A stretch of 64,000 nucleotides of DNA from Bacteroidia bacterium (GTDB taxonomy: Bacteria; Bacteroidota; Bacteroidia; NS11-12g; UBA955): the NCBI GenBank assembly GCA_040403495.1, contig JBBAKM010000007.1, forward strand, positions 486-64,485, read 5' to 3'. Positions within the stretch are counted from its first letter, which is position 1, and each line of letters opens with the position of its first letter. The notes beneath the pieces are model-generated. The model worked only from the letters and a program-made list of their open reading frames with translations. It was not told the origin of the DNA and made no database searches. Below, one piece after another: positions 22,740 to 44,019 of this stretch. The translations under genes were made by a program, and so were the position numbers.

Positions 22740-22751
22740 ACATTACTAATA

Positions 22752-25590: not shown

Positions 25591-25686
25591 CTACTTGTAA
25601 TAAATATAACCAATTTGAATTCAATAGTAAAAATTCATACATTTGTATCACATAATGATTAAAAATTCAGGCAATTATAAAATAAA

Positions 25687-26340: not shown

Positions 26341-26366
26341 AGATTTCATCAATCATTCACTTCAGC

Positions 26367-28393: not shown

Positions 28394-28409
28394 GTTTTAA
28401 TGAATTTAA

Positions 28410-28660
28410 TCCGTTCTCGCTCGCATCTTGCGAGTGATTAACCACACCCACCGTTCTCAGCGTTCTCGCTCGCATCTTGCGAGTGATTTACCATACCGCC
28501 TCTGGCGCAATTAATAAATACTTAAGTCGTTGTTGATCTCGGCTAATCCGAGACCAACAACGGCACAATATGAAGTTAAGTAAAAGAGATGCCGGAGGCA
28601 AGGTAGGAGTTAACTCGCAAGATGCGAGCTAGAACTGATGTGAGCTAGAACGGGTATAAT
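28410..28660. repeat. MITE-like composite inverted-repeat element, right copy with extra arm
   Basis: The left arm, ccgttctcgctcgcatcttgcgagtga, is present 1.5 times. The right arm, aactcgcaagatgcgagctagaac…gagctagaacgg, is its reverse complement. The internal perfect hairpin is gttgttgatctcggctaatccgagaccaacaac. Confidence 0.8.
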
Positions 28661-28671
28661 TTCAAAAAACA

Positions 28672-29367
28672 CTACTTCATTTTGTTCAGATTTGTAAATT
28701 CTAAAACTGTTCCATCCTTTAAGAAAAGTCTTGAACCTGTGGCGTTCTTTCTGATTTCAACAATGAAATTGTAATTGATTAGATGACTTCTGTGTGCACG
28801 ATAAAAAAGTGACTCTGGTAATTTTTCTTCAAAATACTTTAAAGATTTAGTTACACTTATTTGTTTGTCCTCATAGTACAAAACGCAATAACTCCGATTG
28901 GCTTGTATTCGACTAATTTTATGACAATTAAAAAACTGTGTTTTATCGTGTCCTACCACCATTAACAAATCGTGTTCATCATGTATTGCGAGTTCTTGCT
29001 TTTGTTTTTCCTCAAGCAACTTATGTATACATTCCTTTAGTTCCGATAACACAACAGGCTTAGAAAGAAAAAACCGAACCCTTTCCTTAATTGCATCAAT
29101 AGCATAGTGTTCGTGAGCTGTGAACAAAACTACTTTGTTTTTAAGTGAATGTGGCAAACTTTCTATGAATTCAAACCCATTTAATTCTGGCATTTCAACG
29201 TCTAAAAAAACAACATCTACAGTTACGTTTTCCAATTCTTGCAACGCTATTTTGGGTGATGTGTATGAACCAATGATTAATAACTGAGTTGAAAAAAAAT
29301 TGTTTACAACCTTTTCAAAACCATTGATTGCAACTTCTGTATCATCTATTATTATCGCTCTTAACAT
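28672..29367 (-). CDS. LytTR-family two-component response regulator
   Basis: 231 aa. The receiver domain carries the phospho-acceptor context 'DVVFLDVEMPELNG', and a C-terminal LytTR DNA-binding domain follows. It lies 12 nt downstream of the kinase gene. Confidence 0.85.
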   Translation of the reverse strand: MLRAIIIDDTEVAINGFEKVVNNFFSTQLLIIGSYTSPKIALQELENVTVDVVFLDVEMPELNGFEFIESLPHSLKNKVVLFTAHEHYAIDAIKERVRFFLSKPVVLSELKECIHKLLEEKQKQELAIHDEHDLLMVVGHDKTQFFNCHKISRIQANRSYCVLYYEDKQISVTKSLKYFEEKLPESLFYRAHRSHLINYNFIVEIRKNATGSRLFLKDGTVLEFTNLNKMK

Positions 29368-29379
29368 CTATTTTTTGAC

Positions 29380-32304
29380 TTAATTTTTATTTTCGGGTTC
29401 TACTAAATAAGGTATATTAAGTGTAACACGTGTACCCGTTTCTAAATTTGATTCATTGCCTATATTTTCAATCGTAAAAAAAGATTCAATTTTTAATAGT
29501 TTACTGTAAGCTTTTAATCTATTTTGAATATTATCCAAACCATAAGACTTTCTCTCTGATACCTTTTTATTATACCCTACGCCATTGTCTGTAATTATTA
29601 CATTCAATAGCTTGTCTTTGAGTTTAACATCAAGTTGAATACGGTTTAATTGCTGTTTATGAGGAACCAATCCATGAATGATTGCATTTTCTACAAAAGG
29701 CTGAAATATCATCGTAGGCACTTTAACATTTGTTATGGTGGCGCTTGATGTGTCTGAGAAAAAACGATAGTCAAAATCTATGTTTATATTCCTTATGAGA
29801 CCTTCTAGTTTAATATACTCTTTAATAGTTTCTATTTCTTGTTCTAATGATATGAAACTGTAATCAGATTTCTCCAAAATGCTTCGCATTACTTTACCAT
29901 ATTGCCCTATGAACTCAAAAGCTTTTTCCTTGTCATTATCCAAAACTACACTTTGCAAACTCATTAATGAGTTGCTTAAGTAATGAGGATTAATTTGAGC
30001 TCTCAATGCTTTAAGTTCGCTTTCAAGCAAGACTAATTCTCTTTTTAGCGTATTTTGCTTTAACTTAAAATAGAACTTACTTATGTAAACAGCAAGAATA
30101 ATTAATATCAAACCATAAATCAAAATGGCTATTTGAGAGCTATACCAAGCTGGTTCAACTATTAATTTAATTTTTTTATAGCTTTTAACATCTGAATCTT
30201 TATTCTTCCTAAAATACACATTGTAAGTTCCTCTTTTCAAGGAATATAAAATCAATTCAAAGTTATTTAAGAGTATCCATTTGTCACTTATTTCTGGAAT
30301 TTTATATTCAATATTTGTATGGTTTAGTAAATCAATATCCGCTAAAGCAAGTTTCATTGTAAAATCAGCAAATCCTTCTTTTAAATAATATTGATAACTT
30401 AATGGTTGCTTATCTCCATTATAATCTATTTGTTGAATTATAATTGGATTATTGTTCTTATAAGGGATATATGTATTAGGATCAAAAACTACTATGCCAG
30501 ACATATTAGACAATGCAAATCTATCATCACTTAATCTTACGCCAGAGTTGTAAAACCTTCCATTAAACTCTTTATTTATTAAGCCATTATTTGTATCAAA
30601 TCTATAAATTTGCAATTCATTTTTAGGGTTTTTTTCAAACCCCAAAACCTCATTTTTTTCTATTAAAACCAATCCACTGTTTGTTGGAATCCAATAATTT
30701 CCTTTTTTATCCACTAGGTAATAATGAGCAAAATTTAATACTCCATTAGGATCATTAAAAAACTTACTAATCTTCAAATCCTTATCCATCCAATAAATAC
30801 CAGAACCATACGTAAATACCCAATATTTATTAATACTTGAATCATACTTGACAAACCTTACTTCCTTTCCTATTAATTCATTAATAATTTTCGACTTTTG
30901 GGTTAACAAATCATATAATTCAATCCCATCTTTTTCTCTTACTAAAAGCCACTGGCTTGGTTTATAAAACTCATGTGCAGAAGAAATTGTAAAATTTACC
31001 TTTAAGACATTCTCTAATTTGTTTTTCCCATTTAAGCAAAGCAATTTATTCCTGTGTAACACATATATTTTTCCTTTACTTAAAAATGCATCTGTATAAA
31101 ACTTTTCATTCGCTTCCGACGAAATATCCACTTTGTACTTTTTACAAGATTTGTCACTTATATAATAAACCGAGTCTTTGTTAAATAAGCATATTTCACT
31201 GCTGTTGATATTTATTGCGGCAGAAAAAAAATTGACAAACTGGAAGTTTTTGAATACACTTGAATTAAATGATAAAGGCATTCCTAAAGAATTAACAAAA
31301 ACTCGATAAACCTCCGCTTTTTCTTCCTCCCTTAAAGGATTTAATTCATTTTTAAAAAGACTTGGTTGTAGCAAATACAATCCATTTGTTGCGGAGTAAA
31401 AAATAGTTACTTTTTCATTTTTTAAATAGACAGATCTTTTTAAACTCTTATCCTCAATCCCATGCTTATTTATCTGTTTAAAATTCAATTTATTGTCTAA
31501 AATTATAACTTTAAACAAATCAGAACCTACATGTAAATCTATTTCATTGTTATTTTTATTAAATATTAAACTCGAGAGGTCAATTTTTCTATTTAAAATT
31601 TTTGGCAAATCATAAACTGCTTCTATTCTATCCTTATAAATCACATATAATTTTTTCGAGTAACTTAACATAGCAAGCCGGTTGTTAAATACAAAACCTG
31701 CATTAGAGAAAAATAAATGATCTATATTTGGTACTTTTTTGTCCTTGCCAAAAAAAATTTGATCTAAATTAACTTGATACCAAGTACTACTATCTAAATC
31801 ATAATAAAAAACACCATCATTTATATGATTAAAATTCCTTACAGTTGAAAATAAAACAGGATTTTCCTCTTTAAAAATCAATTCATAATTACCATTTACA
31901 ATACAATTTTTCCCAAAAACCAAACTTGAATCATAAATTAATTCAGAATTTTTATTGACCTTAAAAAAACGATTATCAGATGATTTAATTACCAATTCAC
32001 CATTTTCTCTTCTTTGAATTTTATCAAAACGATTATTTTTAATTGAAGGAAAGTTAATACTAGAATAATTAAAGAAACTTCTTCCATTATATCTACTTAG
32101 GCCTGATTGTGTAGCTATCCAAACAAATCCGTTTTTATCGCTATTCACATCATTAATTAGATTACTGGGTAAGCCATTTTCGTTAGTATAATGCTTTATC
32201 AAATAATCATTCTCATGTACTTTTTGTGAAGTAGCTGTATAGTTAAAAACCAAGAGCAAAACAATCAAAAACAAATCCTTTAAACCCTTTATTGTGCAAT
32301 TCAT
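29380..32304 (-). CDS. Sensor histidine kinase: periplasmic two-component-regulator propeller/Y_Y_Y-type domain + TM + LytS-type His_kinase/HATPase
   Basis: 974 aa with a signal/TM helix at the N-terminus and a long repeat-rich extracytoplasmic region. A TM helix (IAILIYGLILIILAVYI) is followed by the LytS signature 'INPHYLSNSL' and an ATPase domain. Confidence 0.8.
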   Translation of the reverse strand: MNCTIKGLKDLFLIVLLLVFNYTATSQKVHENDYLIKHYTNENGLPSNLINDVNSDKNGFVWIATQSGLSRYNGRSFFNYSSINFPSIKNNRFDKIQRRENGELVIKSSDNRFFKVNKNSELIYDSSLVFGKNCIVNGNYELIFKEENPVLFSTVRNFNHINDGVFYYDLDSSTWYQVNLDQIFFGKDKKVPNIDHLFFSNAGFVFNNRLAMLSYSKKLYVIYKDRIEAVYDLPKILNRKIDLSSLIFNKNNNEIDLHVGSDLFKVIILDNKLNFKQINKHGIEDKSLKRSVYLKNEKVTIFYSATNGLYLLQPSLFKNELNPLREEEKAEVYRVFVNSLGMPLSFNSSVFKNFQFVNFFSAAININSSEICLFNKDSVYYISDKSCKKYKVDISSEANEKFYTDAFLSKGKIYVLHRNKLLCLNGKNKLENVLKVNFTISSAHEFYKPSQWLLVREKDGIELYDLLTQKSKIINELIGKEVRFVKYDSSINKYWVFTYGSGIYWMDKDLKISKFFNDPNGVLNFAHYYLVDKKGNYWIPTNSGLVLIEKNEVLGFEKNPKNELQIYRFDTNNGLINKEFNGRFYNSGVRLSDDRFALSNMSGIVVFDPNTYIPYKNNNPIIIQQIDYNGDKQPLSYQYYLKEGFADFTMKLALADIDLLNHTNIEYKIPEISDKWILLNNFELILYSLKRGTYNVYFRKNKDSDVKSYKKIKLIVEPAWYSSQIAILIYGLILIILAVYISKFYFKLKQNTLKRELVLLESELKALRAQINPHYLSNSLMSLQSVVLDNDKEKAFEFIGQYGKVMRSILEKSDYSFISLEQEIETIKEYIKLEGLIRNINIDFDYRFFSDTSSATITNVKVPTMIFQPFVENAIIHGLVPHKQQLNRIQLDVKLKDKLLNVIITDNGVGYNKKVSERKSYGLDNIQNRLKAYSKLLKIESFFTIENIGNESNLETGTRVTLNIPYLVEPENKN

Positions 32305-32685
32305 TGTACTAAAAAAAAAGATAAATTCACAATTTCAACACAAGTTATACAATATTGTTTTAAACTATGAAGTCGCAAAATTAACTATTAGTGTGAAATA
32401 ATTTAAAAGATTTTCTGACAAGAATATGTTTTAAACATATTTTAATAACAATCTTCACATTTAGTTAATTGAGCACTCTTCATTAAGTAGTATTTTTTTG
32501 CTTGTTTTAATACTATCATTTCAACATTTATTGAATAAAACCAATAACCTAAATTATATTTTTGCATAATTTAACCCATTTAAGCTGTTATTGTTGTTTT
32601 TTAATTTCTGCATATTTGAATTAGTTCATTTACAAAACTTTTTTTTATAATCCCTTTCTTTTATACTTGGCCGTGCATTTTTTAC

Positions 32686-32756
32686 CGCTCTTTGATAAAC
32701 TCAGAACAGGCTCCAGCGCTGAGGTCGCTGAGGGGTTATTCACTAAGTCGCCTTAT
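32686..32756. repeat. Copy of the 'gataaactcagaacaggctcc.gcgct.aggtcgc.gagg' repeat; the second copy is at 38978
   Basis: About 60 nt are near-identical between 32686-32745 and 38978-39037. Confidence 0.75.
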
Positions 32757-33134
32757 TATAATATATTTCCTTGATAATTAATCCATTGAATAAGATATTA
32801 TTTGACCTTCGGTATGAAACTCTCTTGCAAAGTTTGAAACATAAAAATGAACAACTTGCGCTTGAACCACTAATACTTTCTGCCATTTTCCACAAGAAGT
32901 GCCTTTTAGTGGTGGTTTTAATTGAAATTATTGCACTTATCAAAACTCTAGAAAAAATAGTTTTTTGTTTGTTGACACCAATATAGAATTATTATTAATA
33001 GAAGTTGGATTATCCACTATTTTCATTTGTGATTTTGCTTCTTTAATAAAGAACCCTAAAAAAAATAGGCTTGAGGTTTGGCTTTTAGTTGTTTTTTTCA
33101 TTTTTTTAAATATCCTAATAAAATCTAAATAAAC

Positions 33135-34571
33135 TTAATTAATCCTTTTAGCAGACATCCAACTTTTACCATTTGCATCTGACAAAGTATAGCCTGAATT
33201 TGATGCCGCTTGAGAATAAATCCTTAATTTATATATTGCGGAACCTGTAGTGGTTACAAAATACTTACCATAACCGACACCTTGAACATTTAAAGAAAGT
33301 GCACTATATGTAGCTTGTGTTTCAGTATCACTAATCACTCCATTTGAAGATGATGTTAATACACCACTTACGCCTCCTGGTGTAGCTATATTAAAGCCTC
33401 TTAAACTCCATTCTATTTCCCAAACTCCAGCAGATGGTATTGTTATTGAAATATAATCTGTTGCAGTTGATGGGCTAGTTCCGGATGCAATAACCAAATT
33501 TGCACCAATTATTGGAGAAACAAATATAGGAAACACTGTTCTACTTATCATTCTCCATGCTGTTCCTGTACTTTGAATTGTAATCGAACTCAATGTAGGA
33601 ATTATAGTTGTTGAAATTCCATTTGTACCTAAAACATTTGATGCAAAAGACTTATCTACAGGACCAGAGTTAGCAACTACATATATCCTACCTGGACAAG
33701 ATGAAGCACTTGGAAGCGTTACAGTTTGAGTTGTGGCATCATTAAGAAATATAGTGTGGTCTTTGTTTCCTAATGTATATGTTGCACCTGTTATTCCTTT
33801 TGCAATTGGCGCAAAAGATCCTGATAATTCTAGTGTACTTGTTGGAGTTGTTGTACCAATTCCGACATCTCCATTATGTAATATTCTCATTCGTTCCTGT
33901 TCACTTGTATTACCAAGTGATGTCGTAGAAAATACTAGGTTTCCTCCCCCTTCTGTAGTAGTTTGATTTTCTGCTGTCAAGGCATTTATAGATGCATTTC
34001 TATTGTATGTAGTTCCGTTTGCGCTCTGAAACAATATTCCCGCTACTGCTGATCCTGAAACAAGTGCAGTGTTTACTGAAGGGTCTGCATTGTTAGTTTT
34101 ACGAATTGTAATCCATGCATTATTACCATTAGTAGTTGTTCCCCTAGTAATAGAAAAGTTTTGAATCGTTCCTCTAAAATCAAGAGATCTGTTTTCCATA
34201 TTTACTATTCTATTGCTTTTTAGAGTTCCATCAACCGTATAAATATTTTGTAGGTTTAAAGCATCTGCAATTTGAACCCATTGAGTGCCATCGTTATAAT
34301 AAAAACCAGGGCTTACATTATTTGGAGCAGTTCCTGCAGTAGCAGTGTTATAGACTGTCATACCTGAAATATGCGCGTTTAATGGCGAAGCATTATTAAT
34401 GGCACTTAGAGAAACTCTAGGCAAAAGCAAGCCTTTATTTGTGGACTCGAGTTCTAGAATAGAATTGGAATTAATCGTGGTTGGGTTATCACCCACTTTT
34501 ACTTGGGAATATGTTTCTTGAGATAATAATCCTAAAAAGAGAAGGATTAGGAGTTTGATTGTTTGTTTCAT
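33135..34571 (-). CDS. Secreted tail-fibre-like repeat protein, paralogue of 36184..38313 (shared N-terminal module)
   Basis: The start is chosen at MKQTIKLLILLFLGLLSQETYSQ, a signal peptide; the ORF track extends it upstream to 34652. The mature N-terminus VKVGDNPTTINSNSILELESTNKGLLLPRVSLSAINNASPL…YYNDGTQW is ~75% identical to that of the 709-aa protein. The 'ERMRILHNGDVGIGTTTPTSTL' repeat motif is present. Confidence 0.7.
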   Translation of the reverse strand: MKQTIKLLILLFLGLLSQETYSQVKVGDNPTTINSNSILELESTNKGLLLPRVSLSAINNASPLNAHISGMTVYNTATAGTAPNNVSPGFYYNDGTQWVQIADALNLQNIYTVDGTLKSNRIVNMENRSLDFRGTIQNFSITRGTTTNGNNAWITIRKTNNADPSVNTALVSGSAVAGILFQSANGTTYNRNASINALTAENQTTTEGGGNLVFSTTSLGNTSEQERMRILHNGDVGIGTTTPTSTLELSGSFAPIAKGITGATYTLGNKDHTIFLNDATTQTVTLPSASSCPGRIYVVANSGPVDKSFASNVLGTNGISTTIIPTLSSITIQSTGTAWRMISRTVFPIFVSPIIGANLVIASGTSPSTATDYISITIPSAGVWEIEWSLRGFNIATPGGVSGVLTSSSNGVISDTETQATYSALSLNVQGVGYGKYFVTTTGSAIYKLRIYSQAASNSGYTLSDANGKSWMSAKRIN

Positions 34572-34599
34572 TTTTATTATATTTTTGTTGTTTTTTTGA

Positions 34600-34740
34600 A
34601 TTCTTATTTTCTCACTTCGGAGGCATTCACCACAGAGGCACAAAGAGCACAAAGATTTCCTCAGTATTCTCCGTGACTTTGTGGTGCTTTTTTTTTACCA
34701 CGGAGTCAACCTCCATAGGCGGACAGACACATGCACAAAG
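34600..34740. repeat. GC-rich hairpin repeat ('cattcaccacagaggcacaaagagcacaaagatttcctcagtattctccgtgactttgtggtgcttttttt…accacggag'), copy 1
   Basis: It is near-identical to 35170-35250 and shares cattcacc/cggagg motifs with 38360-38400 and 39050-39080. Confidence 0.75.
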
Positions 34741-34741
34741 A

Positions 34742-35122
34742 TTATAAATAACCATTAATAGTCCTTTTAACTCCATTCTTTAATAACACTTCGTTAAAAT
34801 TGATTAATAACCCTAGTTTCAAATTTTTAAGTTTTAAATAGGTAAGGAGTTGTGCAGTATGAATATCCGCTAATGCTTCAACACTTTTAATCTCTATAAT
34901 TACTTTATTTTCAACTAGTGCATCTATTCTATATCCTGCATCGAGTTTTACATTTTTATAAACTACTGGTAGTGATTGCTGTTGATATACTTCCAATCCC
35001 ATTTGCCTAAGTTCGTAAACTAAACATACTTCGTAGGTACTTTCTAAAAGCCCTGGACCAAGATGCCTATGTACTTCTATTGCTGCACCGATTACTATTG
35101 TTGAAATTTCGTTTTCTGTCAT
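34742..35122 (-). CDS. GxxExxY family protein (PD-(D/E)XK nuclease fold)
   Basis: 126 aa. The N-terminus 'IVIGAAIEVHRHLGPGLLESTYEVCLVYEL' contains the invariant G..E..Y motif, and the size is right for the family. Confidence 0.75.
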   Translation of the reverse strand: MTENEISTIVIGAAIEVHRHLGPGLLESTYEVCLVYELRQMGLEVYQQQSLPVVYKNVKLDAGYRIDALVENKVIIEIKSVEALADIHTAQLLTYLKLKNLKLGLLINFNEVLLKNGVKRTINGYL

Positions 35123-35124
35123 TG

Positions 35125-35300
35125 TTTATTTATTTACCGCAGAGGCATTCCCTTAGAAGGAATCTACCAAAGAGACATTCACCACATAGGCACAAAGAGC
35201 ACAAAGATTTCCTCAGTATTCTCCGCGACTTTGTGGTGCTTTTTTTACCACGGAGGCATTTACAGCGGAGGCGAAGAGTAAGCTGAGGTGTTTTCTTTGC
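35125..35300. repeat. GC-rich hairpin repeat, copy 2 (flanks the other side of the GxxExxY gene)
   Basis: See 34600-34740. The element ends with accacggaggcatttacagcggaggcgaagag. Confidence 0.75.
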
Positions 35301-35320
35301 GCTATTTATATTTAATTTTA

Positions 35321-36160
35321 CTATTCAGTTTTTATTTTATCCATAGATTCTTTAATTGCAGTTATGGTTTTTAGGTTTTGAGCTGCTATTTCATATTCAG
35401 GGGCTAATTCCAATGCTTTCTTAAAACTTTCTATAGATTCCATGTAAGCCTTATTTTCGTATTCTAACAATCCATTGATATTATATAAAACTGCTCTAAA
35501 CGGCACATTTATTTCTTTTTTGTTTTTTTCATTAAGTACAGAGAGAGAAACTTGATTTATTGTGGTATCTGCCATTAAACTATTACAAGTTACTTGCGCC
35601 TCTTTAACCCTTTTGAGTTGTTGTTGTAATTGCAGTAATGCATAGCCATGTTGTATGTTTTTTGAATTAGAATATAACTTTTGGTATGCATCTGCTGCTT
35701 CAACCGTTTGGTTTAAGGCATTTGCAGAAACAGCGAATATTTCTGTTATTAAATCAGAACTTCTACCACTTTCTTGAATCTCTTTAACTAATTTGTAAGA
35801 AATATCGTATTGCCTGTTTTGTGCATACATTAAGGCTAAGGTATCTTTATATTCTATATTACTTTTATTTTCAATCAAATAATAATTTAAAGAAACTATT
35901 GCTGTATTTAAATCACCCTTTTGTATTGACTGTCTGTATACTTTCACGTGCAGATTCTCATTTAAGCTCTTATTTGGATTGGTCTTTTTTACTTTTTTTA
36001 CCTTAACATCTTGTGCAAAACCTAAATTATAACATAATAGAATGCATAATACGATTAGTCTTCCTAACATTTTGAATCTATTTATTGATTTAAAATCCAT
36101 TATTTTCATTTTTACTGTCATTAATTTTGAATAAAAAAAGGACTTTGATAATGATACCAA
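35321..36160 (-). CDS. Tetratricopeptide-repeat protein with an N-terminal signal/TM segment
   Basis: 279 aa with hydrophobic 'LGRLIVLCILLCYNLGFAQ' followed by several TPR-like helical repeats (…ALMYAQNRQY…, …AYMESIESFKKALELAP…). The true start may be an internal Met. Confidence 0.55.
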   Translation of the reverse strand: MVSLSKSFFYSKLMTVKMKIMDFKSINRFKMLGRLIVLCILLCYNLGFAQDVKVKKVKKTNPNKSLNENLHVKVYRQSIQKGDLNTAIVSLNYYLIENKSNIEYKDTLALMYAQNRQYDISYKLVKEIQESGRSSDLITEIFAVSANALNQTVEAADAYQKLYSNSKNIQHGYALLQLQQQLKRVKEAQVTCNSLMADTTINQVSLSVLNEKNKKEINVPFRAVLYNINGLLEYENKAYMESIESFKKALELAPEYEIAAQNLKTITAIKESMDKIKTE

Positions 36161-36183
36161 AGTCCTTTTTATGAAAAGTTTTT

Positions 36184-38313
36184 TTATTTCTTTTCTAACA
36201 ATTCCAATTTAGCTTTTAATTCATCTATCTGTTTTTGTTGATCTTTGATTGCTTCCACTAAAACTGGCACTAAATTTTGGTAAGCCATAGAAAGTGTTTC
36301 GCCTTTAGTAACATCTCCTTCTACACCCATTACAACTTCGGGTACAACTTTCTGAACATCTTGTGCTAAAAACCCTAATTGTCTTCCAGACTCAAGGTTA
36401 TTGCTCCAATTATAATAAACCCCATTCAATTGGTTTACCAATCCAAGTGCATTTTCAACTTTAACAACATTGGTTTTTAAACGAGCATCAGAAGAGTGTA
36501 ACCAACCAGTAGTGGTGTATGTTCCTGTTGTTGTTCCATTAAATACAGTAAGTCTTTGTGATGGGGAAGCTGTTCCTATACCAACATTTCCATTATTATT
36601 GATTCTCATTCGTTCAGAAGTACCACCATTATTAGTTTCAAAAACAATTTTACCAGCAGCACGTGTTGAAGTAATAACTATTCCATTATCGGTCCCTGTT
36701 TGGCCTGTTGTAGTAATCGCACCAGCACTATTACCATCAGCTGAATTAATAAAATATAGACCTCGATTTGAAATATCACCAAAAACATCCAATTTTCGAG
36801 TTGGTGAAGTTGTTCCTATACCTATATTACCAGCAATATTAATCCTCATTCTTTCCTCACTATCTGTTTCAAAAGCAATCCCTGTAAGAGATCTTATTGC
36901 TATTATTGTATTACTATTGATTGCCGGCCCAACTCCACCAGCTCCTGAAACTATATAACTTGCAGAATTATCTATTCGAATATTTCCTCCTGAAACTTGC
37001 AGTCTTTCAGTTGGAGAGACAGTACCTATACCAACATTACCACTATTATTAATAACCATAGCTTCCGTTTCTACACTTGAATTTGGCTGTTTTACATGAA
37101 ATTCAATAGCAGGCTTGGTTGACCTTGAATCAAATGATATAAATGAACCTTGAAAAGTAGGTTGACTTACTCCCAATAAAGATGGCATGTTTGAACCAAT
37201 TCGAATAAGTCCAACAGTGTTTCGCATAATACCCATGTTATAAGTTGAACTTAATGCAATATTACCATTTACTTCTAACCTTTGTGATGGAAAATCTTGC
37301 AAACCACCGCCAATTAGTAGTCCATTTGGATTTAATCTCATTAATTGAATATAGGTTGAAGCATCATTGGTCTGTGCCCATGTAAAACCACCTGCCCCTG
37401 TTCCTCTATGGTTTACAAATCCAGAATAGCCTTGTGCTGCTAACCCACCAAATAAAATACCTGAATTCCAAGACAAATGCATTCCTTGATTATTATTTGG
37501 TGCACCTGATACAATCAAAGCCCCTCCTGATACACTTAGCCTTGAAGGTGCGGTAGTTCTTCCTATAGAAACATTTCCATTGGGATGTACAATAAGTCTA
37601 TCTCTTCCTCTTGACATCAATCTAAATGAGTTATTATTAATAGTTCCTACTCTATTGTTTCTAGTGTTAGTATAATTACCACCTAAACGCCAAAACGGTG
37701 ATGTTGGCGGACGAGTTGAAGACAAAACCCAAGTTGTTCCGTTAAATTGATAGGTATTTCCTGCATTTGCTCCTTCAGTTACAACTCTTTTCTCGCCTGA
37801 AACAGGAGTATAAAAATTCCAAATCAGATTTCCTGATGTATTTACACCAGCTAACTCTGCTATATTATTTGTTTGTCCAGCCCAGTCTCCACTCGCACCC
37901 GATGGCACAATATAAACATCCCCATCATCACCTGAGGTAGGAGGAGCTGTTAGCGTATTATCAATAACTGGACCACCATCGTTGTCAACATCAGCTAAAT
38001 CAGAAAAAGCAATTAACTGCCATTTAGTTCCGTCGTTATAGTAATATCCTGGAACTACATCATTTGGCAATGTTCCCGCAGTGGCAGTGTTGTATACTAT
38101 CATACCTGCTACGTGAGCAGATAATGGAGATGCATTGTTTGTGGCAGAAAGAGTTACTCTTGGCAAGAGTAATCCTTTGTTTGTAGCTTCCAATTCTAAT
38201 ACAGAATTTGAATTAATGGTTGTAGGGTTATTTCCTACTTTTACTTGGGCGTATACCCCTTGAGCGAACAATCCTAAAAAAAATAGGATTAGTAATTTGC
38301 TTGTTTTTTTCAT
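36184..38313 (-). CDS. Secreted tail-fibre-like protein with a C-terminal peptidase-S74-type intramolecular chaperone (self-cleaving) domain
   Basis: 709 aa with signal peptide MKKTSKLLILFFLGLFAQGVYAQ. It has the paralogous N-terminal module and three or more 'ERMRINxxGNVGIGTxSPxxxL' repeats. The C-terminus 'SSDARLKTNVVKVENALGLVNQLNGVYYNWSNN…' followed by a coiled-coil tail (IDELKAKLELLEKK) matches the SDxRxK(E/T)N[IV]…Y.W signature of phage tail-spike/endosialidase chaperone domains. Confidence 0.7.
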   Translation of the reverse strand: MKKTSKLLILFFLGLFAQGVYAQVKVGNNPTTINSNSVLELEATNKGLLLPRVTLSATNNASPLSAHVAGMIVYNTATAGTLPNDVVPGYYYNDGTKWQLIAFSDLADVDNDGGPVIDNTLTAPPTSGDDGDVYIVPSGASGDWAGQTNNIAELAGVNTSGNLIWNFYTPVSGEKRVVTEGANAGNTYQFNGTTWVLSSTRPPTSPFWRLGGNYTNTRNNRVGTINNNSFRLMSRGRDRLIVHPNGNVSIGRTTAPSRLSVSGGALIVSGAPNNNQGMHLSWNSGILFGGLAAQGYSGFVNHRGTGAGGFTWAQTNDASTYIQLMRLNPNGLLIGGGLQDFPSQRLEVNGNIALSSTYNMGIMRNTVGLIRIGSNMPSLLGVSQPTFQGSFISFDSRSTKPAIEFHVKQPNSSVETEAMVINNSGNVGIGTVSPTERLQVSGGNIRIDNSASYIVSGAGGVGPAINSNTIIAIRSLTGIAFETDSEERMRINIAGNIGIGTTSPTRKLDVFGDISNRGLYFINSADGNSAGAITTTGQTGTDNGIVITSTRAAGKIVFETNNGGTSERMRINNNGNVGIGTASPSQRLTVFNGTTTGTYTTTGWLHSSDARLKTNVVKVENALGLVNQLNGVYYNWSNNLESGRQLGFLAQDVQKVVPEVVMGVEGDVTKGETLSMAYQNLVPVLVEAIKDQQKQIDELKAKLELLEKK

Positions 38314-38345
38314 TTTATTGATACTTTGGTTATTTTTTATTTTTT

Positions 38346-38412
38346 ATTTTTTATTTTTTTCACCCGGAGACATTCACCGCAGAGACGCGGAGAACGCGGA
38401 GGGGATTTTCGC
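38346..38412. repeat. T-rich run + 'cacccggagacattcaccgcagagacgcggagaacgcggagggg' member of the cattcacc/CGGAG repeat family
   Basis: It shares the gacattcacc.cag ag motif with 35180-35200 and cgcggag(g) with 39065-39085. Confidence 0.6.
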
Positions 38413-38413
38413 T

Positions 38414-38956
38414 TCATTTCCTTTTTATTGTGTGTTTTAATTTAACGACTGCAAAATTCAGTTCTATAGTTGTTTCGGTATTGGTTACATTAAGTTCATT
38501 GCCTATCCAATCTGATATTAATACACTTGTTTGATTCATTATTTCTTTTTGTTTTTCTGGATCTTCGGTTGTATTTATTGTTTCTAGGTTTCTTGTTAGT
38601 TCTTTGAATGTTGCAAATGCTTCTATAATGGAAAGAGTGGTTTGGGTTGCTTTGGCACTTTTTAAAATTGTTGCTAGCATATAAAGCCCTTTTTCAGTAA
38701 AGGCTTTTGGAAGTTTTACTTTCCCTCCAGCTGATAATGAAGACGAAAATTTCGACTTCATTGTATTCCACTCTTCTGTATTTAGATACAATATATACCC
38801 TTCAGGAAATCTATCGGGATTGTTTTTTACTGCCTCATTTACGCGTTTGGTTTCTACACCATACAAGGCAGCCACATCACTATCCAAGATAACTTTTGTT
38901 TCTCGGAGCATCATGATTTTGCTTTCTACTTCGCTATGGGTTAGTTTTCCATTCAT
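38414..38956 (-). CDS. ORF6N-domain (KilA-N-related, phage antirepressor-type) DNA-binding protein
   Basis: 180 aa. The N-terminal 'VILDSDVAALYGVETKRVNEAVKNNPDRFPEGY' is the ORF6N signature. Confidence 0.7.
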   Translation of the reverse strand: MNGKLTHSEVESKIMMLRETKVILDSDVAALYGVETKRVNEAVKNNPDRFPEGYILYLNTEEWNTMKSKFSSSLSAGGKVKLPKAFTEKGLYMLATILKSAKATQTTLSIIEAFATFKELTRNLETINTTEDPEKQKEIMNQTSVLISDWIGNELNVTNTETTIELNFAVVKLKHTIKRK

Positions 38957-38977
38957 TTATTAATTTTCTATTCTTTT

Positions 38978-39092
38978 ATTTACTGCTCTTCGATAAACTC
39001 AGAACAGGCTCCGGCGCTAAGGTCGCGGAGGTTTTCTTCTCTCTGCGCTCTTAGATTTTCACCACGGAGGCGCGGAGGTCGCTGAGGGGATT
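38978..39092. repeat. Second copy of the 'gataaactcagaacaggctcc' repeat, extended with accacggaggcgcggaggtcgctgagggg
   Basis: See 32686. The 3' part is GC-rich CGGAG repeats. Confidence 0.75.
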
Positions 39093-39093
39093 T

Positions 39094-40602
39094 TTATTTA
39101 TTCAATATAATTTTATAGGTTTTGGTTTGATAATTGCTTGTTACATTCAAAAAATACATGGCGTTATCCAAATGATTCAAATCTATTGATTGTAAACCCG
39201 ATTGTTTTGAATCATTACTCAAAATTAATTTACCATCAAAAGAAGTTAGCGTGTAGGTTAAATCTGTGTTTTCTGAAAAAATATTAATAATTCCTTGAGA
39301 TGGATTTGGATAAATTTTTACCACAGGATTAAGTCCATCACTAAATTCAACTATTTTGAAATCAGACTGAGTTGGATTCCCTTCAAAATCTACCATTGTT
39401 AATTTGTAAAAATTTAAGCCCAATTGTGCATTAACATGTTTAAATGCATAATTATTAACCAGTGATGAAGTTCCTGCTCCTTTTACTTCTCCTATTTTAG
39501 ACCAATTCGTTCTATCCACACTGGTTTCTAAAACAAAGTGACTGTTGTTGAATTCATTGGTAGTAGTCCAAGTAATTTGAGACACCAAATAACTAGCAGC
39601 TTGTGCATTAAAATCAATTAAGGTAACTGGCAATGGCGTTAATAAGTTAGTTGATTTACTGTAAAAAGCACCACTAGCGGAAGCAGAAGTAACTGTAGTA
39701 TATAATCTTGTATGCTTTACTGCAGATAAAGATGTACCTGTTGAAGGTGCATTTGTCCCTATGGCACCAACTCCGTCATCCCACATTGAAGAACCTTGAT
39801 ACTGAGTCACAAAGGCATCTGCATCTGAAGTATAAGCCGAACCATTAGTTGATGTATTATGTTGAAGTGTTAAATTAGCTGCCGAACCTGAAGTAGAATA
39901 AATATTCCAAGTTCGAAAAATTCCATTATCAGGAACTCTCTCATCAGAAGCAGACTCCGAATAGTTTTTTACTTGAACAAAAAAGTTATCAGTAGAATTG
40001 GGTGTTATGGTTGCAGGGGTATAATCAGTTGTAGCTCTTCCAACGGGGAAATCAAAAGAAGCAGAAGAAGCAATAGATTCTTTAGCTAAAAATCCCGTTC
40101 CATTGGTTACTATATATTGGGTTTCGTCTACATTGGTAATAGTAGCAGCGGATGCAACCTCAAAATTTTGATCTCCTAAAATCAAATGCCCATTTACAAA
40201 ATCCAAACCCGTTGTAATCCTTGCGTATGAATTTGTTAAAGTAACGTTATTGGTATTGTCTATTGCGATATTAATCAACGAAGGATGAGCTCCACCAATA
40301 GTAGAGCTATTACCTCCATCGAGTGTTTGAGCAGCAGCACCTACAAACAAAATCCTTCCTGTTCCAGCTTGTGTAGAAGTAGTATTGGCAAAAATTTCAG
40401 CCCCAGTATTAATAGTAGTAGCAGATCCTAACATGTGTAATGTGGAACCATTTTGAAAAAACATTTGTGCATCTACTCCTAATTGCAAATTACCAAAGTT
40501 ACCCATTTCTCCAAAAACTGAAAAAGAGCCATTGATATTAGTTTGGGAATGTGTTGCATTTATAAATAGCAATGTAAAAGCAAATAGAAGTGACTTCTTC
40601 AT
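39094..40602 (-). CDS. Secreted protein with a T9SS type-A (Por_Secre_tail) C-terminal sorting domain
   Basis: The start is taken at MKKSLLFAFTLLFINATHSQ, a signal peptide. The C-terminal ~80 aa, 'KIYPNPSQGIINIF…YFLNVTSNYQTKTYKIILNK', is the type-A CTD pattern. Confidence 0.7.
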   Translation of the reverse strand: MKKSLLFAFTLLFINATHSQTNINGSFSVFGEMGNFGNLQLGVDAQMFFQNGSTLHMLGSATTINTGAEIFANTTSTQAGTGRILFVGAAAQTLDGGNSSTIGGAHPSLINIAIDNTNNVTLTNSYARITTGLDFVNGHLILGDQNFEVASAATITNVDETQYIVTNGTGFLAKESIASSASFDFPVGRATTDYTPATITPNSTDNFFVQVKNYSESASDERVPDNGIFRTWNIYSTSGSAANLTLQHNTSTNGSAYTSDADAFVTQYQGSSMWDDGVGAIGTNAPSTGTSLSAVKHTRLYTTVTSASASGAFYSKSTNLLTPLPVTLIDFNAQAASYLVSQITWTTTNEFNNSHFVLETSVDRTNWSKIGEVKGAGTSSLVNNYAFKHVNAQLGLNFYKLTMVDFEGNPTQSDFKIVEFSDGLNPVVKIYPNPSQGIINIFSENTDLTYTLTSFDGKLILSNDSKQSGLQSIDLNHLDNAMYFLNVTSNYQTKTYKIILNK

Positions 40603-41150
40603 TTTAAAAATATTTAATTGATATGTTTTAATATTATAGTTCATAATGTTTGATTGATTAAATTGTACTAAGTGGTTCATTTTTGTGTAATTTAAAGTGC
40701 AGCAAAGTTAAGAACGTAATTAATGCTAATATTTTTACAGTAATGAAAGTGAATAAATATTTTCCCAAATGACCTTAAAATGAAACGAAATTACCTTTTT
40801 AGCTTTCGAGAGTAATTCAAAACCTATAGAATAGGGTATAAAAAGGTGTTAAATTAATGTTAATTTCACCAAATACACTCCCATTGATTGAAACCAATGT
40901 ACTACAACATGCTTTTTGTACTACAAATTTCACACAACATTCATTTTCGCTCACCGCTATTGATTAATACTTTGAAAATCAATCCATGAAAATAACATAA
41001 GTTAGAAAAAAAACCACAAACGAAGTACATAAAAAGATAAAACACTATATTTAAGTATAAAAATAGACTATAAAAATCCAATTAATAAGAAAAATGTACC
41101 CATTATTATAAAGTACTCGATAAAAATTTAGGTACTTTCATTTAAAATAA

Positions 41151-41180
41151 AAGGTCATTTGTTAGTCAGAAGGTCATTTT
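41151..41180 (+). promoter_or_regulatory. Direct repeat aaggtcattt-N9-aaggtcattt about 80-100 bp upstream of the regulator gene cluster; a candidate LytTR-type or LuxR-type operator
   Basis: The core aggtcattt is at 41152-41160 and again at 41171-41179, giving a 19-bp period. An AT-rich tattatataaa -7-like element lies about 30 bp downstream. Confidence 0.35.
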
Positions 41181-41257
41181 GAAGTTTTCCAAAAAATAGT
41201 ATTATATAAAAGGGACTAATTTCGAAAAAATTAATTGAATCTATTTCAATATACTAA

Positions 41258-41923
41258 TTGACAATGCAACAACTCATAATTATCAACAAAGACAAAGAAC
41301 AGGCGGAAGATTTAAAAAGTATGCTTTCACCTCATTATTTTGTTAGAGGCATCTTTTCTAACATTGAGAGTTTTATTGAAGTGATGTCACTAAAAACACA
41401 TATTTACATTATCATTTATTGCAATAAGACCATCGATAATTTTGCAGCAGTAAAAAGCTCAAGAATCATTATTTACAACAGTTTAGAAAATGACAAGCTA
41501 ATATTTAATGCCATACAATTAGGAGTAAAAGGTTTTGTAAATCATACTCAGAAAATAAATGAGTTATTAGACATTATAGAAATAATCATTATGGGTGGTT
41601 GCTATGTAAGTAATACCATTATTTACAAACTCTTTAAACACATACAAGACATCAATGATTTAATCCTAGGAAAAAAAATACAGAAATACGACACACTATC
41701 CAGAAGAGAAGTAATGGTTTTTGAACAACTTCTTAGTGGATATTCGTACAAAGAAATTTCTACAAACCTTGGCATTTCAGTTGACACAACACGTAAACAC
41801 ATCAGTAGAATTTACAAAAAAATAAATATTCACAGCAAAGGAGAACTTTATAATCTACATTATAATGTTCAAATAAAATCCAAACAGTACAATCAATTAT
41901 TTCCACAATACATTAAACAATAA
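41258..41923 (+). CDS. LuxR/FixJ-family transcriptional regulator with a degenerate N-terminal receiver-like domain
   Basis: 221 aa. The C-terminal HTH 'LSRREVMVFEQLLSGYSYKEISTNLGISVDTTRKHISRIYKKINIHSKGEL' is the GerE/LuxR type. The N-terminal ~120 aa are receiver-sized but lack an obvious DD…D…K phospho-acceptor set. Confidence 0.7.
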   Translation: MTMQQLIIINKDKEQAEDLKSMLSPHYFVRGIFSNIESFIEVMSLKTHIYIIIYCNKTIDNFAAVKSSRIIIYNSLENDKLIFNAIQLGVKGFVNHTQKINELLDIIEIIIMGGCYVSNTIIYKLFKHIQDINDLILGKKIQKYDTLSRREVMVFEQLLSGYSYKEISTNLGISVDTTRKHISRIYKKINIHSKGELYNLHYNVQIKSKQYNQLFPQYIKQ

Positions 41924-41928
41924 TAACC

Positions 41929-42519
41929 ATGATTACTTCAAGAAAAACCAAAAGAAAATCCAATACACCTTTTTACAATATCTGCATAGTGGACGATTCT
42001 CACATTTATGCATTAGGCTTAAAAAACAGCATTGATAAGAGTCTAAATAGAACGGCTCACTCATTCGTTTTTCATCACAAAAGTTTAGATGAAATTAACA
42101 CATCAAGCACAGCTCCTATTGATATTTTATTTATAGATTACGATGATTTACTTCTTCCTCAATTTAACACCATTTTCTCAAAATTGAAAAGAAAAAATCC
42201 AAGTATGAAACTTATCGTTTCTACGGCTGATTTGCTAAATATAGATTTCATAAAATTATACACCTATAACATCAATGGATTATTCTCCAAAAGCTTAAGT
42301 ACAAAAGCATTTAATATTTATTTTAAACGTGTTTTAGATCAAACCATGTTTATTGACCAATATAGTATTAGAAGAATTGTAGAAGAAGAGAAGAAGCAAA
42401 AAATTAGGTACTATTATAAATCTGTTTCACTTCAAAACTTGGAGTTGATTCAAAATCGTTATTTGAACTATACACCCTATTTTGTTGACAAAGAAGCTTT
42501 ATCATTTCTTCAGCAGTAA
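41929..42519 (+). CDS. Stand-alone receiver-like (possibly pseudo-receiver) domain protein
   Basis: 196 aa. The 'ICIVDDSH…DILFIDYDD…LIVSTAD' pattern resembles a CheY-like fold. No output domain is present. Confidence 0.4.
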   Translation: MITSRKTKRKSNTPFYNICIVDDSHIYALGLKNSIDKSLNRTAHSFVFHHKSLDEINTSSTAPIDILFIDYDDLLLPQFNTIFSKLKRKNPSMKLIVSTADLLNIDFIKLYTYNINGLFSKSLSTKAFNIYFKRVLDQTMFIDQYSIRRIVEEEKKQKIRYYYKSVSLQNLELIQNRYLNYTPYFVDKEALSFLQQ

Positions 42520-42600
42520 ATTAAAACTTATAAACTTGAAATAACCTACAATTTAATGTTAATTTGCATTAATTTATTGGTACTTTATTGAAATCAAAAA

Positions 42601-43329
42601 ATGTTTAGCGCCATATTAATAGACGATCAAGAAGAAATTATAGTTTCTATTAGCAAAATGATTGCTCATTTTTTCAATGAGGATATTAAAATTATTGGCA
42701 CTTATACTTCATCTGAAGAGGCAATCATTTCATTATCGGAAACTGAACCCGATCTTATTTTCATGGATATGGAAATGCCCTATTTAAATGGACTTGATGC
42801 TATCAATTTAATTCCCGACAATATAAAATCAAAAGTTATTGTTATTTCAGGCAAAGATCAATATGCTATAAAAGCACTTAAATTCAATGTATTTGATTAT
42901 TTATTAAAACCTGTTTCTTTGATTGAGTTTAAAAAATGTATCGAAAAACTAAAGGCCGAAGAAGCGTTAATTAAAGTCAATCAAAATGAAGTTAAATCAA
43001 ATACCATTGTTATTGATAGTAAATTCAAAACCTATTTTTTAGAATTTCCACTTATTAATCACATAAAGTCGAAATCCTCACATACGCTTATTAATATTGA
43101 AAATCAGGAACAGTTAGTTCCTCGACCTATAAAATATTTTGAAGAAATACTCCCTAAAACACTTTTTTTCTCCCCTCACAGATGTCATATTGTAAACTTT
43201 AACTTTATTAAGGAACTTCGTAAATCCGAAAATGGCGGTGCTATTATGGTTTTAAAGGATGATACCCAAATTGAAATGTCAAAAAAGAAGAGAGTTAGCT
43301 TTATGACTCACTTCAAATACAAGTTTTAG
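42601..43329 (+). CDS. LytTR-family response regulator, paralogue of 28672..29367
   Basis: 242 aa. The receiver 'ILIDDQEE…DLIFMDMEMPYLNG…VIVISGKDQYAIKALKFNVFDYLLKP' is followed by a LytTR domain. No kinase gene is adjacent. Confidence 0.85.
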   Translation: MFSAILIDDQEEIIVSISKMIAHFFNEDIKIIGTYTSSEEAIISLSETEPDLIFMDMEMPYLNGLDAINLIPDNIKSKVIVISGKDQYAIKALKFNVFDYLLKPVSLIEFKKCIEKLKAEEALIKVNQNEVKSNTIVIDSKFKTYFLEFPLINHIKSKSSHTLINIENQEQLVPRPIKYFEEILPKTLFFSPHRCHIVNFNFIKELRKSENGGAIMVLKDDTQIEMSKKKRVSFMTHFKYKF

Positions 43330-43514
43330 TGTTTGGGGGTCGTGAAAAAGTTATAAAAACCTTGTTCATTTGTTATAATTGTTAATCCCGTTAGTATTTC
43401 GTAAGATTTGCTAGCGGTTTTTTCTTAGCCTTTTTTGTGCTTGAGCTAAGCTCAGACTAAATTCTCAGAGATTATCCACTCGAACTCAAGAGTTCTCATC
43501 TCTTAAGCAAAAAA

Positions 43515-43540
43515 AAACAGGCGGTAAGCCTGTTTGTTTT
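43515..43540. terminator. Bidirectional rho-independent terminator (aaacaggc-ggtaa-gcctgttt flanked by an A9 run upstream and a T-rich run downstream)
   Basis: A perfect 8-bp stem with a 5-nt loop is flanked by caaaaaaaaa on the left and gtttgtttt on the right. Confidence 0.65.
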
Positions 43541-43557
43541 GCGGAGAGTAAGAGATT
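43541..43557 (-). repeat. 17-nt duplicate of the tRNA-Ser 3' end (gcggagagtaagagatt = the T-arm/acceptor 3' part); att-like remnant
   Basis: It is identical to 43717-43733 inside the intact tRNA gene. Confidence 0.7.
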
Positions 43558-43672
43558 ATTGGCATGATCTCTGTGAGGAGTGGCTTCAAGACACTACAAA
43601 ACCTAGCCGTTACACGGCTGGTCTTTTTTTATGCCCTTTTTTGTGCTTGAGCTAAGCTCAGACAAAAAAAGG

Positions 43673-43702
43673 GCATAAAAAAACCTCAATAAAATTGAGG
43701 TT
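43673..43702 (-). terminator. Terminator immediately 3' of tRNA-Ser (cctcaat-ttt-attgagg stem followed by T7 on the minus strand)
   Basis: The forward strand reads aaaaaaacctcaataaaattgaggtttt. On the minus strand a hairpin is followed by ttttttt. Confidence 0.65.
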
Positions 43703-43713
43703 TTGTAGAGTCT

Positions 43714-43801
43714 TGGCGGAGAGTAAGAGATTCGAACTCTTGATACCTTGCGATATACACGCTTTCCAAGCGTGCTCCTTAAACCACTCGGACAACTCTC
43801 C
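43714..43801 (-). tRNA. tRNA-Ser (anticodon GGA), type II with a long variable arm; the CCA end is encoded
   Basis: The minus strand reads GGAGAGTTGTCCGAGTGGTTTAAGGAGCACGCTTGGAAAGCGTGTATATCGCAAGGTATCAAGAGTTCGAATCTCTTACTCTCCGCCA. It has a 7-bp acceptor stem, a D-arm with GG, an anticodon stem CACGC/GCGTG with loop TTGGAAA, a long extra arm and a T-arm GTTCGAATC. Confidence 0.9.
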
Positions 43802-43852
43802 TTTATTCGTTTGCAAAAATAATCCTATTTTTTATTAAAAAAATTGCATTAT

Positions 43853-43911
43853 TTATACACGCTTTCTCCCGAAACCTCGGGATGCTCCTTAAACCACTCG
43901 GACAACTCTCC
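43853..43911 (-). pseudogene. Partial tRNA-Ser copy (5' acceptor + D-arm + part of the variable arm) with the anticodon arm replaced by an unrelated hairpin; tRNA fragment
   Basis: 43884-43911 is identical to 43774-43801, and 43853-43865 to 43751-43763. The segment caagcgt is replaced by tcccgaaacctcgggat, and no 3' half is present. Confidence 0.7.
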
Positions 43912-44019
43912 TTTTTCTAACGGATTGCAAAATTAATGCTTTTTAATTTAACTATTAAAGTTTTATTGCTCAATTTCTAAGTAATTTTACACCTTAACCT
44001 TTTATTCATTATTTTGAAA

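Follow-up and report, generated by a model that had tools for sequence, protein, structure and literature searches.

A probable strain-variable locus for secreted MAT-type fibres and their partners beside tRNA-Ser(GGA) in a freshwater Bacteroidota lineage

Introduction

Fibres of the mosaic adhesive trimer (MAT) type became known in 2024 as adhesins with which Bdellovibrio recognises its prey. They are defined (Caulton et al., Nat Microbiol 2024, PMC10769870) by a signal peptide, a conserved N-terminal domain (N-domain), a trimeric stalk and tips that are either of the S74 kind or not; they were located on the predator surface, glycan binding was reported for one member, and Supplementary Table S3 includes members from the FCB group (Bacteroidota). 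The present analysis concerns a stretch of 64,000 nucleotides from Bacteroidia bacterium (GenBank assembly GCA_040403495.1, contig JBBAKM010000007.1, positions 486 to 64,485), which is referred to in its full length of 64 kb as the window and in which all coordinates are numbered. The part of the window from 27.5 to 43.5 kb is probably a chromosomal locus, dispensable and variable between strains, in a lineage of freshwater Bacteroidota, and encodes secreted trimeric fibres of the MAT type together with dedicated partners. On this reading the tRNA-Ser(GGA) gene at its right-hand end is the landmark of a recombination hot spot and not the integration site of the block.

The PTL_trimer family of Bacteroidota, of which these fibres are members, is large. 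We know of no described mechanism for the anchoring and export of MAT-type fibres, and the locus offers leads in this regard: a conserved cargo partner of the type IX secretion system (T9SS) that could account for anchoring or export, a dedicated kinase-regulator pair plus a triad of regulators, and a natural swap between strains that is confined to the exposed part of the fibre and to the sensor domain of the kinase.

Gene content and order of the locus

The locus is flanked by housekeeping genes, for example those of DnaE, DnaX, PyrB and LpxK, and by the T9SS translocon gene sprA. Domain calls for its genes were re-derived with Pfam, NCBIfam and PHROGs. From the tRNA-Ser side leftwards, the regulator triad is followed, divergently, by genes for the T9SS cargo, ORF6N, a fibre with a Peptidase_S74 tip, a secreted tetratricopeptide repeat (TPR)-like protein, a GxxExxY protein, a second fibre without S74, a dead third fibre, a LytS-like sensor kinase of the propeller type and a LytTR regulator. 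An earlier interpretation of this DNA, made from its letters without database searches (the sequence-only reading), had already listed most of these contents. Its assignments of ORF6N, GxxExxY, T9SS cargo, LytS-type kinase and LytTR regulator agree with the profile searches (Reg_prop being sub-threshold), and the features it listed were found again, with the decayed third fibre and a 32-nt copy of the tRNA 5' half as items it had overlooked. The contents are no miscellany: judged by an order that recurs in the congener locus L096 (loci from other genomes are designated here by L numbers), most of the block genes are predicted to form one module.

The composition of the block is atypical, as had been claimed. 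In 12 of 12 block genes the GC content at third codon positions (GC3) is lower than the core mean (0.31 +/- 0.04), and the genes of the kinase, the triad and a lipoprotein have 27-29% GC versus 35.5 +/- 1.8% in the core.

The fibre proteins

Both intact fibre genes are on the minus strand. The larger (36184-38313) encodes a protein of 709 amino acids (aa) with a signal peptide, the PTL_trimer domain (PF26696), DUF2793, beta-helix stalk repeats and Peptidase_S74 (E 2.9e-16; score 59.9 bits, the cut-off being 22), the catalytic Ser/Lys of which are found in the sequence SDARLK (SDxxxK motif) at Ser608. The smaller (33135-34574) encodes a secreted protein of 479 aa with a signal peptide, the PTL_trimer N-domain and a tail-fibre-like stalk; no S74 domain was detected in it by domain search, and its last ~135 aa have no relative among the fibre homologues collected. 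In both proteins the Sec signal peptide is followed immediately by an N-domain of ~80 aa common to the two, which bears out the earlier description of two paralogous secreted tail-fibre-like proteins, one of them with S74. The decayed third fibre gene (within 32778-33101, minus strand; the remnant itself at about 32,950-33,101) has kept its signal peptide and the first part of the N-domain, after which stop codons occur; a remnant is present in L096 as well.

PF26696 PTL_trimer is listed for the exact fibre proteins of the window (P0001 and P0035) in the precomputed Pfam annotation of the protein collection, and in nearly all of 42 inspected homologues the 80-aa domain stands straight behind the signal peptide. 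In metagenome contigs at least 540 stretches encode a relative of the N-domain, and among 1.84 billion proteins it is matched by 7,567 cluster representatives; there was no match in 2.9 million viral contigs, and a literature search on PF26696 / PTL_trimer returned no paper. Further along the S74 fibre, residues 411-546 match the Bdellovibrio MAT fibre Bd2133 (8ond_A; E 6.2e-9), with weaker stalk matches to 8oml, 8ol4 and 8on4, and the C-terminal half of the protein matches many PHROG tail-fibre families.

The partner genes

The cargo gene (39094-40605, or up to 40680 in the domain calls; minus strand) encodes a T9SS type A cargo protein in which the C-terminal sorting domain (CTD; Por_Secre_tail / TIGR04183) is present. 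The predicted structure of the protein is all-beta and terminates in an FN3-like domain and the CTD. The family is uncharacterised, and its genes usually adjoin a PTL_trimer fibre gene: when 80 metagenome loci that had been retrieved with the fibre N-domain were queried with the non-CTD part of the cargo, 21 of the 24 homologues were directly beside, and on the same strand as, a fibre gene. Look-ups starting from cargo homologues found adjacent fibre genes in two of three cases. This adjacency of fibre and cargo is the best-supported new association of the analysis. Genes for Redoxin proteins (thioredoxin/AhpC-like, 360-490 aa) were also seen beside cargo or fibre genes in L090, L092, L093 and L003; the window has none.

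The kinase (29380-32304, minus strand) consists of a periplasmic part of ~720 aa, in which Reg_prop scored below its curated cut-off, one membrane helix and a LytS-type His_kinase (PF06580) core. The adjoining response regulator (28672-29367, minus strand) has a receiver and a LytTR DNA-binding domain, and the pair belongs to the module both in the window and in L096. On the opposite strand the regulator triad (41258-43329, plus) runs away from the cargo gene and consists of a GerE/LuxR-type regulator (41258-41923; GerE match), a receiver-like protein of 196 aa (41929-42519; weak match) and a protein with receiver and LytTR domains (42601-43329; both by domain matches). The triad had been called orphan; it is not, since in L092 it is situated between tRNA-Ser and an array of cargo and fibre genes, and in L097 the GerE gene is beside the cargo gene. 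Regulators accompany fibres in distant loci too: a LytTR two-component system is divergent beside the fibre cluster of L009, and GerE-type regulators and stand-alone receivers are found directly 5' of fibre and cargo pairs in several others.

The 180-aa ORF6N protein (38414-38956, minus strand; ORF6N 3e-29) matches the candidate defence family PDC-S05 of PADLOC along its whole length (PDLC04849; E 1.7e-74, residues 1-180 of 183) and also phage anti-repressor families of PHROG. It has been described that one PDC-S05 representative shielded E. coli against T5 and T7 (bioRxiv 10.1101/2024.09.26.614923). The sequence-only reading had called it a phage-type protein; it is no stray phage gene. The same slot between cargo and fibre is occupied by ORF6N in L096 and L097 (it is missing from L008), and such constancy of place across three congeners speaks for some connection with the module. 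Recent insertion of ORF6N, as hinted by L008, was considered and dropped because L096 and L097 have the gene at the same place.

The secreted TPR-like protein of 249 aa (35321-36070, minus strand; weak TPR matches) is encoded immediately after the S74 fibre in L008, L009 and L096. It is followed in the window by the GxxExxY gene (34742-35122 within 34620-35255, minus strand; PDDEXK_3 / TIGR04256, E ~1e-44), which scores 150.6 bits against a cut-off of 35 with TIGR04256 and 148 bits against 22 with Pfam and belongs to a multicopy family of the PD-(D/E)XK nuclease fold. As the sequence-only reading had noticed, hairpin repeats bracket this gene; they are direct repeats of ~80 nt with 95% identity at 34624-34705 and 35176-35255. 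A recent insertion of the gene relative to L008 was rejected, as in L008, too, a GxxExxY gene begins behind the TPR-like gene; three tandem 84-bp units resembling repetitive extragenic palindromic (REP) sequences are found ahead of it there (L008 11010-11290). ORF6N and GxxExxY may have a role in regulation or in defence, or may be selfish elements.

Comparison with related genomes

A scan with the rhodanese protein, using one genome per species, identified three congeners, to which contig look-ups added others. L004 carries the genes of DnaE, CoA transferase, a pyridoxal phosphate (PLP) enzyme, OmdA, beta-lactamase and a DUF2200 protein, then short repeats and tRNA-Ser. Its flanks are 85-90% identical to the window in DNA and the housekeeping neighbours 93-99% in aa, and it has no counterpart of window 27491 to about 43480. 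The accessory nature of the stretch from 28400 onward, as first delimited, is upheld by this comparison; its left edge is not, as relative to L004 the variable stretch starts at 27491.

In L092 (a contig of 2.95 Mb) SprA, an arylsulfotransferase, a PMT-like protein and the rhodanese protein, at 89-96% aa identity, are followed by tRNA-Ser. Beyond it are the triad (60-70% aa), the cargo (52% aa), five PTL_trimer proteins whose tips are Fib_succ_major, and a redoxin gene. The sequence-only reading had asked whether the tRNA-Ser-to-rhodanese interval is empty in relatives; the block is absent from L004, and L092 has a differing payload at the same tRNA-Ser site. L003 has the triad beside tRNA-Ser, at 70% DNA identity versus 92% in the flank; the position of the triad is the same in L092 and L003 and partly so in L097. 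An Abi_2 abortive-infection gene directly adjoins tRNA-Ser in L003 (5159-6082), which suggests that the tRNA-Ser spot also gathers defence genes.

In L096 (9.6 kb) the cargo (90% aa), ORF6N (80%), the fibre (46%), the TPR-like protein (91%), the remnant of a fibre, the kinase (49%) and the regulator with receiver and LytTR domains (94%) follow one another as in the window; relative to it the window has the GxxExxY gene and the second fibre in addition (35318 down to 33102). In L097 an identity of 90% is unbroken from the GerE gene via cargo and ORF6N into the fibre, and L008 comprises cargo, fibre, TPR-like gene and the start of the GxxExxY gene. A beta-lactamase homologue search for the left flanks of L003 and L092 returned the L004 copy only, an exact look-up of the PLP enzyme gave no match, and exact-protein look-ups of flank genes found only short contigs of the same strain, which end at the repeats.

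By these comparisons the locus is dispensable and compositionally shifted, since L004 is without the block and the block genes have low GC3 and GC, and it appears to have been resident at the site for long with its content replaced, as opposed to a one-off insertion. Allelic replacement is preferred over recent insertion because the L092 genes at the same site are homologous yet 52-70% identical. A core locus of native composition would be another way to read a conserved gene order. The order is indeed conserved in several congeners; the locus itself is dispensable, replaceable and AT-shifted.

Variation in the fibre and the kinase sensor

Divergence between the window and L096 is concentrated in two places. 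At the DNA level similarity is undetectable in the fibre from residue ~350 on (stalk, tip and S74 domain) and in the kinase sensor, and the remainder (cargo, ORF6N, TPR-like and regulator genes, fibre N-domain and kinase core) is 86-92% identical. At the protein level, residues 1-100 of the fibre (signal peptide and N-domain) are 78-90% identical versus 22-40% for residues ~350-700, S74 included; for the kinase the values are 88-98% in the cytoplasmic core (residues 751-974) versus 20-48% in the periplasmic sensor (residues 1-750). Breakpoints differ among strains: the L008 fibre is like that of the window to residue 450 and has a different S74 region, and in L097 the middle of the fibre differs and S74 matches. 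The fibre sequence is, from these alignments, apparently a recombination patchwork among congeners, and the variation has the look of internal segments exchanged by homologous replacement, in what are predicted to be exposed parts.

One strain pair and the adjacency of the genes also raise the idea that fibre and kinase are a matched specificity pair, exchanged and diversifying together. The kinase sensor would then detect a ligand of the fibre tip, the released S74 fragment or the state of engagement of the fibre, with the T9SS cargo as anchor or export carrier. We regard this coupling as a speculative and rather improbable proposal. If true, it would amount to an adhesin circuit that senses contact and whose specificity can be swapped, and such circuits would be widespread in Bacteroidota.

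The tRNA-Ser region, repeats and left edge

The only tRNA in the window is tRNA-Ser(GGA) (43714-43801, minus strand; ARAGORN and Rfam), the right-hand anchor of the locus, with its 3' end facing the block as had been stated; an Rfam scan of the window identified no other RNA family. The 17-mer GCGGAGAGTAAGAGATT from the tRNA 3' end is found at exactly two places, inside the tRNA (43716-43732) and at 43541-43557, the latter being the exact duplicate reported before. The two copies are 176 bp apart. No third copy was detected at up to 3 mismatches (0.06 chance matches expected), including near the far edge at 27.5-28.7 kb.

The region downstream of the tRNA (43418-43713) contains, apart from the 17-nt fragment, a 117-bp unit (43551-43667) and a partial unit (43418-43461). 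The 117-bp unit, which carries a two-way terminator hairpin, sits between the two 17-nt copies and is present 3' of tRNA-Ser in L003, L004 and L092 as well as in the window, with at least two tandem copies in L003 (6440-6760) and L004 (6440-6750) and one mapped in L092. One unit of the window has within it a piece of 80 bp that carries the tRNA 3' fragment, with AGAGATTA (8 bp) at either side. L004, despite having no block, possesses a 20-nt tRNA 3' fragment and the same pieces in permuted order. On the other side of the tRNA there is a partial second copy of its 5' half (43845-43914, minus strand), 80 bp upstream of the real tRNA gene, in which a short GC hairpin stands in place of the anticodon arm; 32 nt of it (43883-43914) are a perfect copy. 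The surroundings of the tRNA clearly went through small rearrangements, none of which delimits the 15 kb. Integration at the tRNA is unsupported because the 17-nt repeat spans 176 bp and the arrangement exists in the block-free L004. The case advises caution with island calls that are made from tRNA adjacency and a short tRNA repeat.

Farther right, 3.5 tandem copies of a 19-20-bp unit, TAACCACGGGTTAAAAACCC, close in a strong hairpin at 44162-44239. In L003 and L004 the interval from the tRNA to the rhodanese gene contains a pair of genes that the window lacks, encoding a 173-aa T9SS protein and a ~740-aa fn3/Fib_succ_major protein (Pfam on the L003 copy only). The sprA gene (2412 aa) is ~6 kb right of tRNA-Ser, T9SS genes being at 46725-56786 and 12953-14428 of the window; further T9SS substrates are encoded in the vicinity, one of them an arylsulfotransferase that bears Por_Secre_tail, another a CHU_C protein.

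At the left edge, L004 homology ends at a partial copy (27491-27583) of a repeat resembling miniature inverted-repeat transposable elements (MITEs). The full palindromic element of ~250 bp, at 28405-28660, confirms the MITE-like repeats previously placed around 28410-28660, and a related copy is found 3' of the regulator gene in L096. Between the two copies is a gene (27692-28393, plus strand; 26.6% GC) that is not in L004 and encodes a predicted lipoprotein of 233 aa with a lipobox-like signal (LLLLPSCS); a search for its family gave no match.

Other repeats are scattered through the locus. Hairpin-forming REP-like repeats rich in CGCAAAG/CGCGGAG motifs occupy gaps between module genes (34600-34710, 35125-35300, 38347-38409 and 39032-39094). 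A 67-nt repeat with 85% identity is found at 32678-32744 and 38976-39042, 5' of the kinase gene and of the ORF6N gene (minus strand); both copies finish in one short reading frame (LSAGACSEFI..), and the repeat may be a gene remnant or a common control element. A sigma-70 promoter scan did not rise above its shuffled control (82 sites versus 75 expected), the model being unsuited to Bacteroidota promoters.

A second segment, 20129-25681, is also missing from L004 and encodes an M54-like peptidase, an amidohydrolase, a DUF6671 protein, an unknown protein and a DUF1648 protein. REP-like repeats are located near its left edge (20237-20552) and within it (23769-23929), and the same family recurs to the right of the tRNA at 44130-44460. 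The OmdA/DUF1801 and beta-lactamase-family genes (25687-27413) are 58% and 85% identical in aa to those of L004, versus 98-99% for their left-hand housekeeping neighbours. From this divergence the variable zone may extend left to about 20.1 kb.

Weighing of the explanations

If the locus is a module for MAT-type fibres, the fibres would leave the cytoplasm by the Sec pathway, and the S74 chaperone would aid trimerisation and then cleave off at Ser608. The conserved N-domain would hold the fibres on the cell surface, possibly via the co-encoded T9SS cargo, the variable tips would attach to cells or particles by way of glycans or other ligands, and the kinase, its regulator and the triad would control expression. 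Several points weigh against this account. The surface position, trimer formation, self-cleavage and ligand binding of the fibres are carried over from family knowledge, and the part of the cargo as anchor or exporter of fibres is suggested by gene adjacency; the cargo homologue of L090 has no neighbouring fibre. To our knowledge there is no known route across the outer membrane for fibres with a Sec signal only. Some of the genes may be passengers, given the candidate defence match of ORF6N and the multicopy nature of GxxExxY. The left junction was seen in one congener (L004), and L096, L097 and L008 are short contigs without chromosomal placement. Receiver open reading frames (ORFs) number 0.70 per 10 kb within 1 kb of fibre genes and ~0.35 farther away; as this distance profile is only about twofold, a strong enrichment of response regulators near fibres was dropped as a candidate, and a general link of two-component genes to fibres in distant loci is suggestive.

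The sequence-only reading had suggested a decayed or novel island whose payload is a regulated surface-fibre system. An accessory segment with a regulated fibre payload remains plausible, and the adjacency of the block to the tRNA 3' end, the 17-nt copy of that end, the absence of the block from L004, its AT-shifted genes and the partial tRNA copies on both sides, as traces of past recombination at the tRNA, would all suit an island that integrated site-specifically at the tRNA-Ser 3' end and later lost its integrase. That history is nevertheless quite unlikely. The duplicate spans 176 bp only and has no counterpart near 27.5-28.7 kb, that tRNA fragment together with 117-bp units is found in the block-free L004 as well as in L003 and L092, and the homologues that L092 holds at the site, at 52-70% identity, fit long residence with allelic replacement better. 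Integrase, transposase and recombinase genes gave zero Pfam matches among ORFs of at least 110 aa across the 64 kb, in accordance with what the sequence-only reading had stated. It had also seen no phage structural module and therefore no recognisable prophage or integrative and conjugative element (ICE), and here too our searches concur, as no capsid, tail tube, sheath, baseplate or terminase gene was found in the block by Pfam/PHROG domain calls. This lack of structural genes tells against a prophage, tailocin or contractile-injection remnant, or fibres that serve a particle encoded elsewhere, to which the PHROG tail-fibre matches of the fibre C-terminal half and the anti-repressor matches of ORF6N would otherwise point. 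Fibres of phages and tailocins are assembled in the cytoplasm. Both window fibres have Sec signal peptides, their N-domain is not among the viral contigs searched, and the conserved partners (T9SS cargo, two-component system, secreted TPR-like protein) are cellular; a phage-related origin of this kind is considered very improbable.

A recombination hot spot that holds unrelated accessory genes and no functional unit would account for the PDC-S05 match of ORF6N, with one representative protective against T5 and T7, for a multicopy nuclease-fold family at GxxExxY, for Abi_2 at the same spot in L003, for REP- and MITE-like repeats at most junctions, including those of the second variable segment at 20.1-25.7 kb, and for the lack of ORF6N in L008. 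What makes it unlikely is the constancy of the arrangement: a six-gene order is kept in L096 despite heavily diverged fibre and kinase sensor, fibre and cargo are adjacent in 21 of 24 cases in distant metagenome loci, the arrangement of triad, cargo and fibre is found again in L092 and L097, and a LytTR two-component system is by the fibre cluster in distant L009. A strain-variable module of MAT-type fibres and their partners, situated at a recombination hot spot marked by tRNA-Ser, is accordingly the explanation we favour as the probable one.

Comparison with known systems

The fibres of phages and their tailspikes (K1F endosialidase, T5 L-shaped fibre) share with the window fibres an S74 domain with the Ser-Lys motif and stalks that match PHROG tail fibres, and DUF2793 in the S74 fibre resembles the N-termini of baseplate-attached fibres. 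They differ in that the window fibre has a Sec signal peptide, an N-domain found only in bacteria and no phage genes nearby. With tRNA-linked islands and ICEs the locus has in common its place by a tRNA 3' end, its strain-dependent presence, its AT shift and the tRNA-derived repeats in its vicinity. In contrast to such islands, it has no integrase, its repeats are not at the block ends and are present without the block, and its variation looks like the swap of single internal stretches and of the entire payload, with the flanks conserved.

The kinase and its regulator resemble LytS/LytR in the His_kinase PF06580 core and in the combination of receiver and LytTR domains. The LytS sensor is a multi-pass membrane domain, whereas here a periplasmic sensor of ~720 aa with a sub-threshold Reg_prop match is joined to one membrane helix; it is this large periplasmic sensor that differs between strains.

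The MAT fibres are the nearest described system. The overall layout of the window fibres corresponds to theirs, with a conserved beta-rich N-domain right after the signal peptide, a long beta-helical stalk with sequence similarity to solved fibres (8ond, Bd2133; E 6e-9), an S74 (SDxxxK) or other tip, and several paralogues per genome with swapped tips. The N-domain here is ~80 aa (PF26696) and not ~130 aa as in Bdellovibrio, the correspondence of the two being one of layout, the host is not a known predator, and the S74 fibre also possesses the phage-type DUF2793. The fibres of this locus are moreover co-encoded with a T9SS cargo, ORF6N, a secreted TPR-like protein and a kinase with its regulator; the passages of PMC10769870 that were read contain no mention of such partners for MAT genes. 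By layout, stalk match and tip type, the window fibres would fit the MAT kind. The fibre class is already known, and the link to a T9SS cargo, the set of partners and the joint exchange of fibre tip and sensor, undescribed in the literature searched, are possibly new additions to it.

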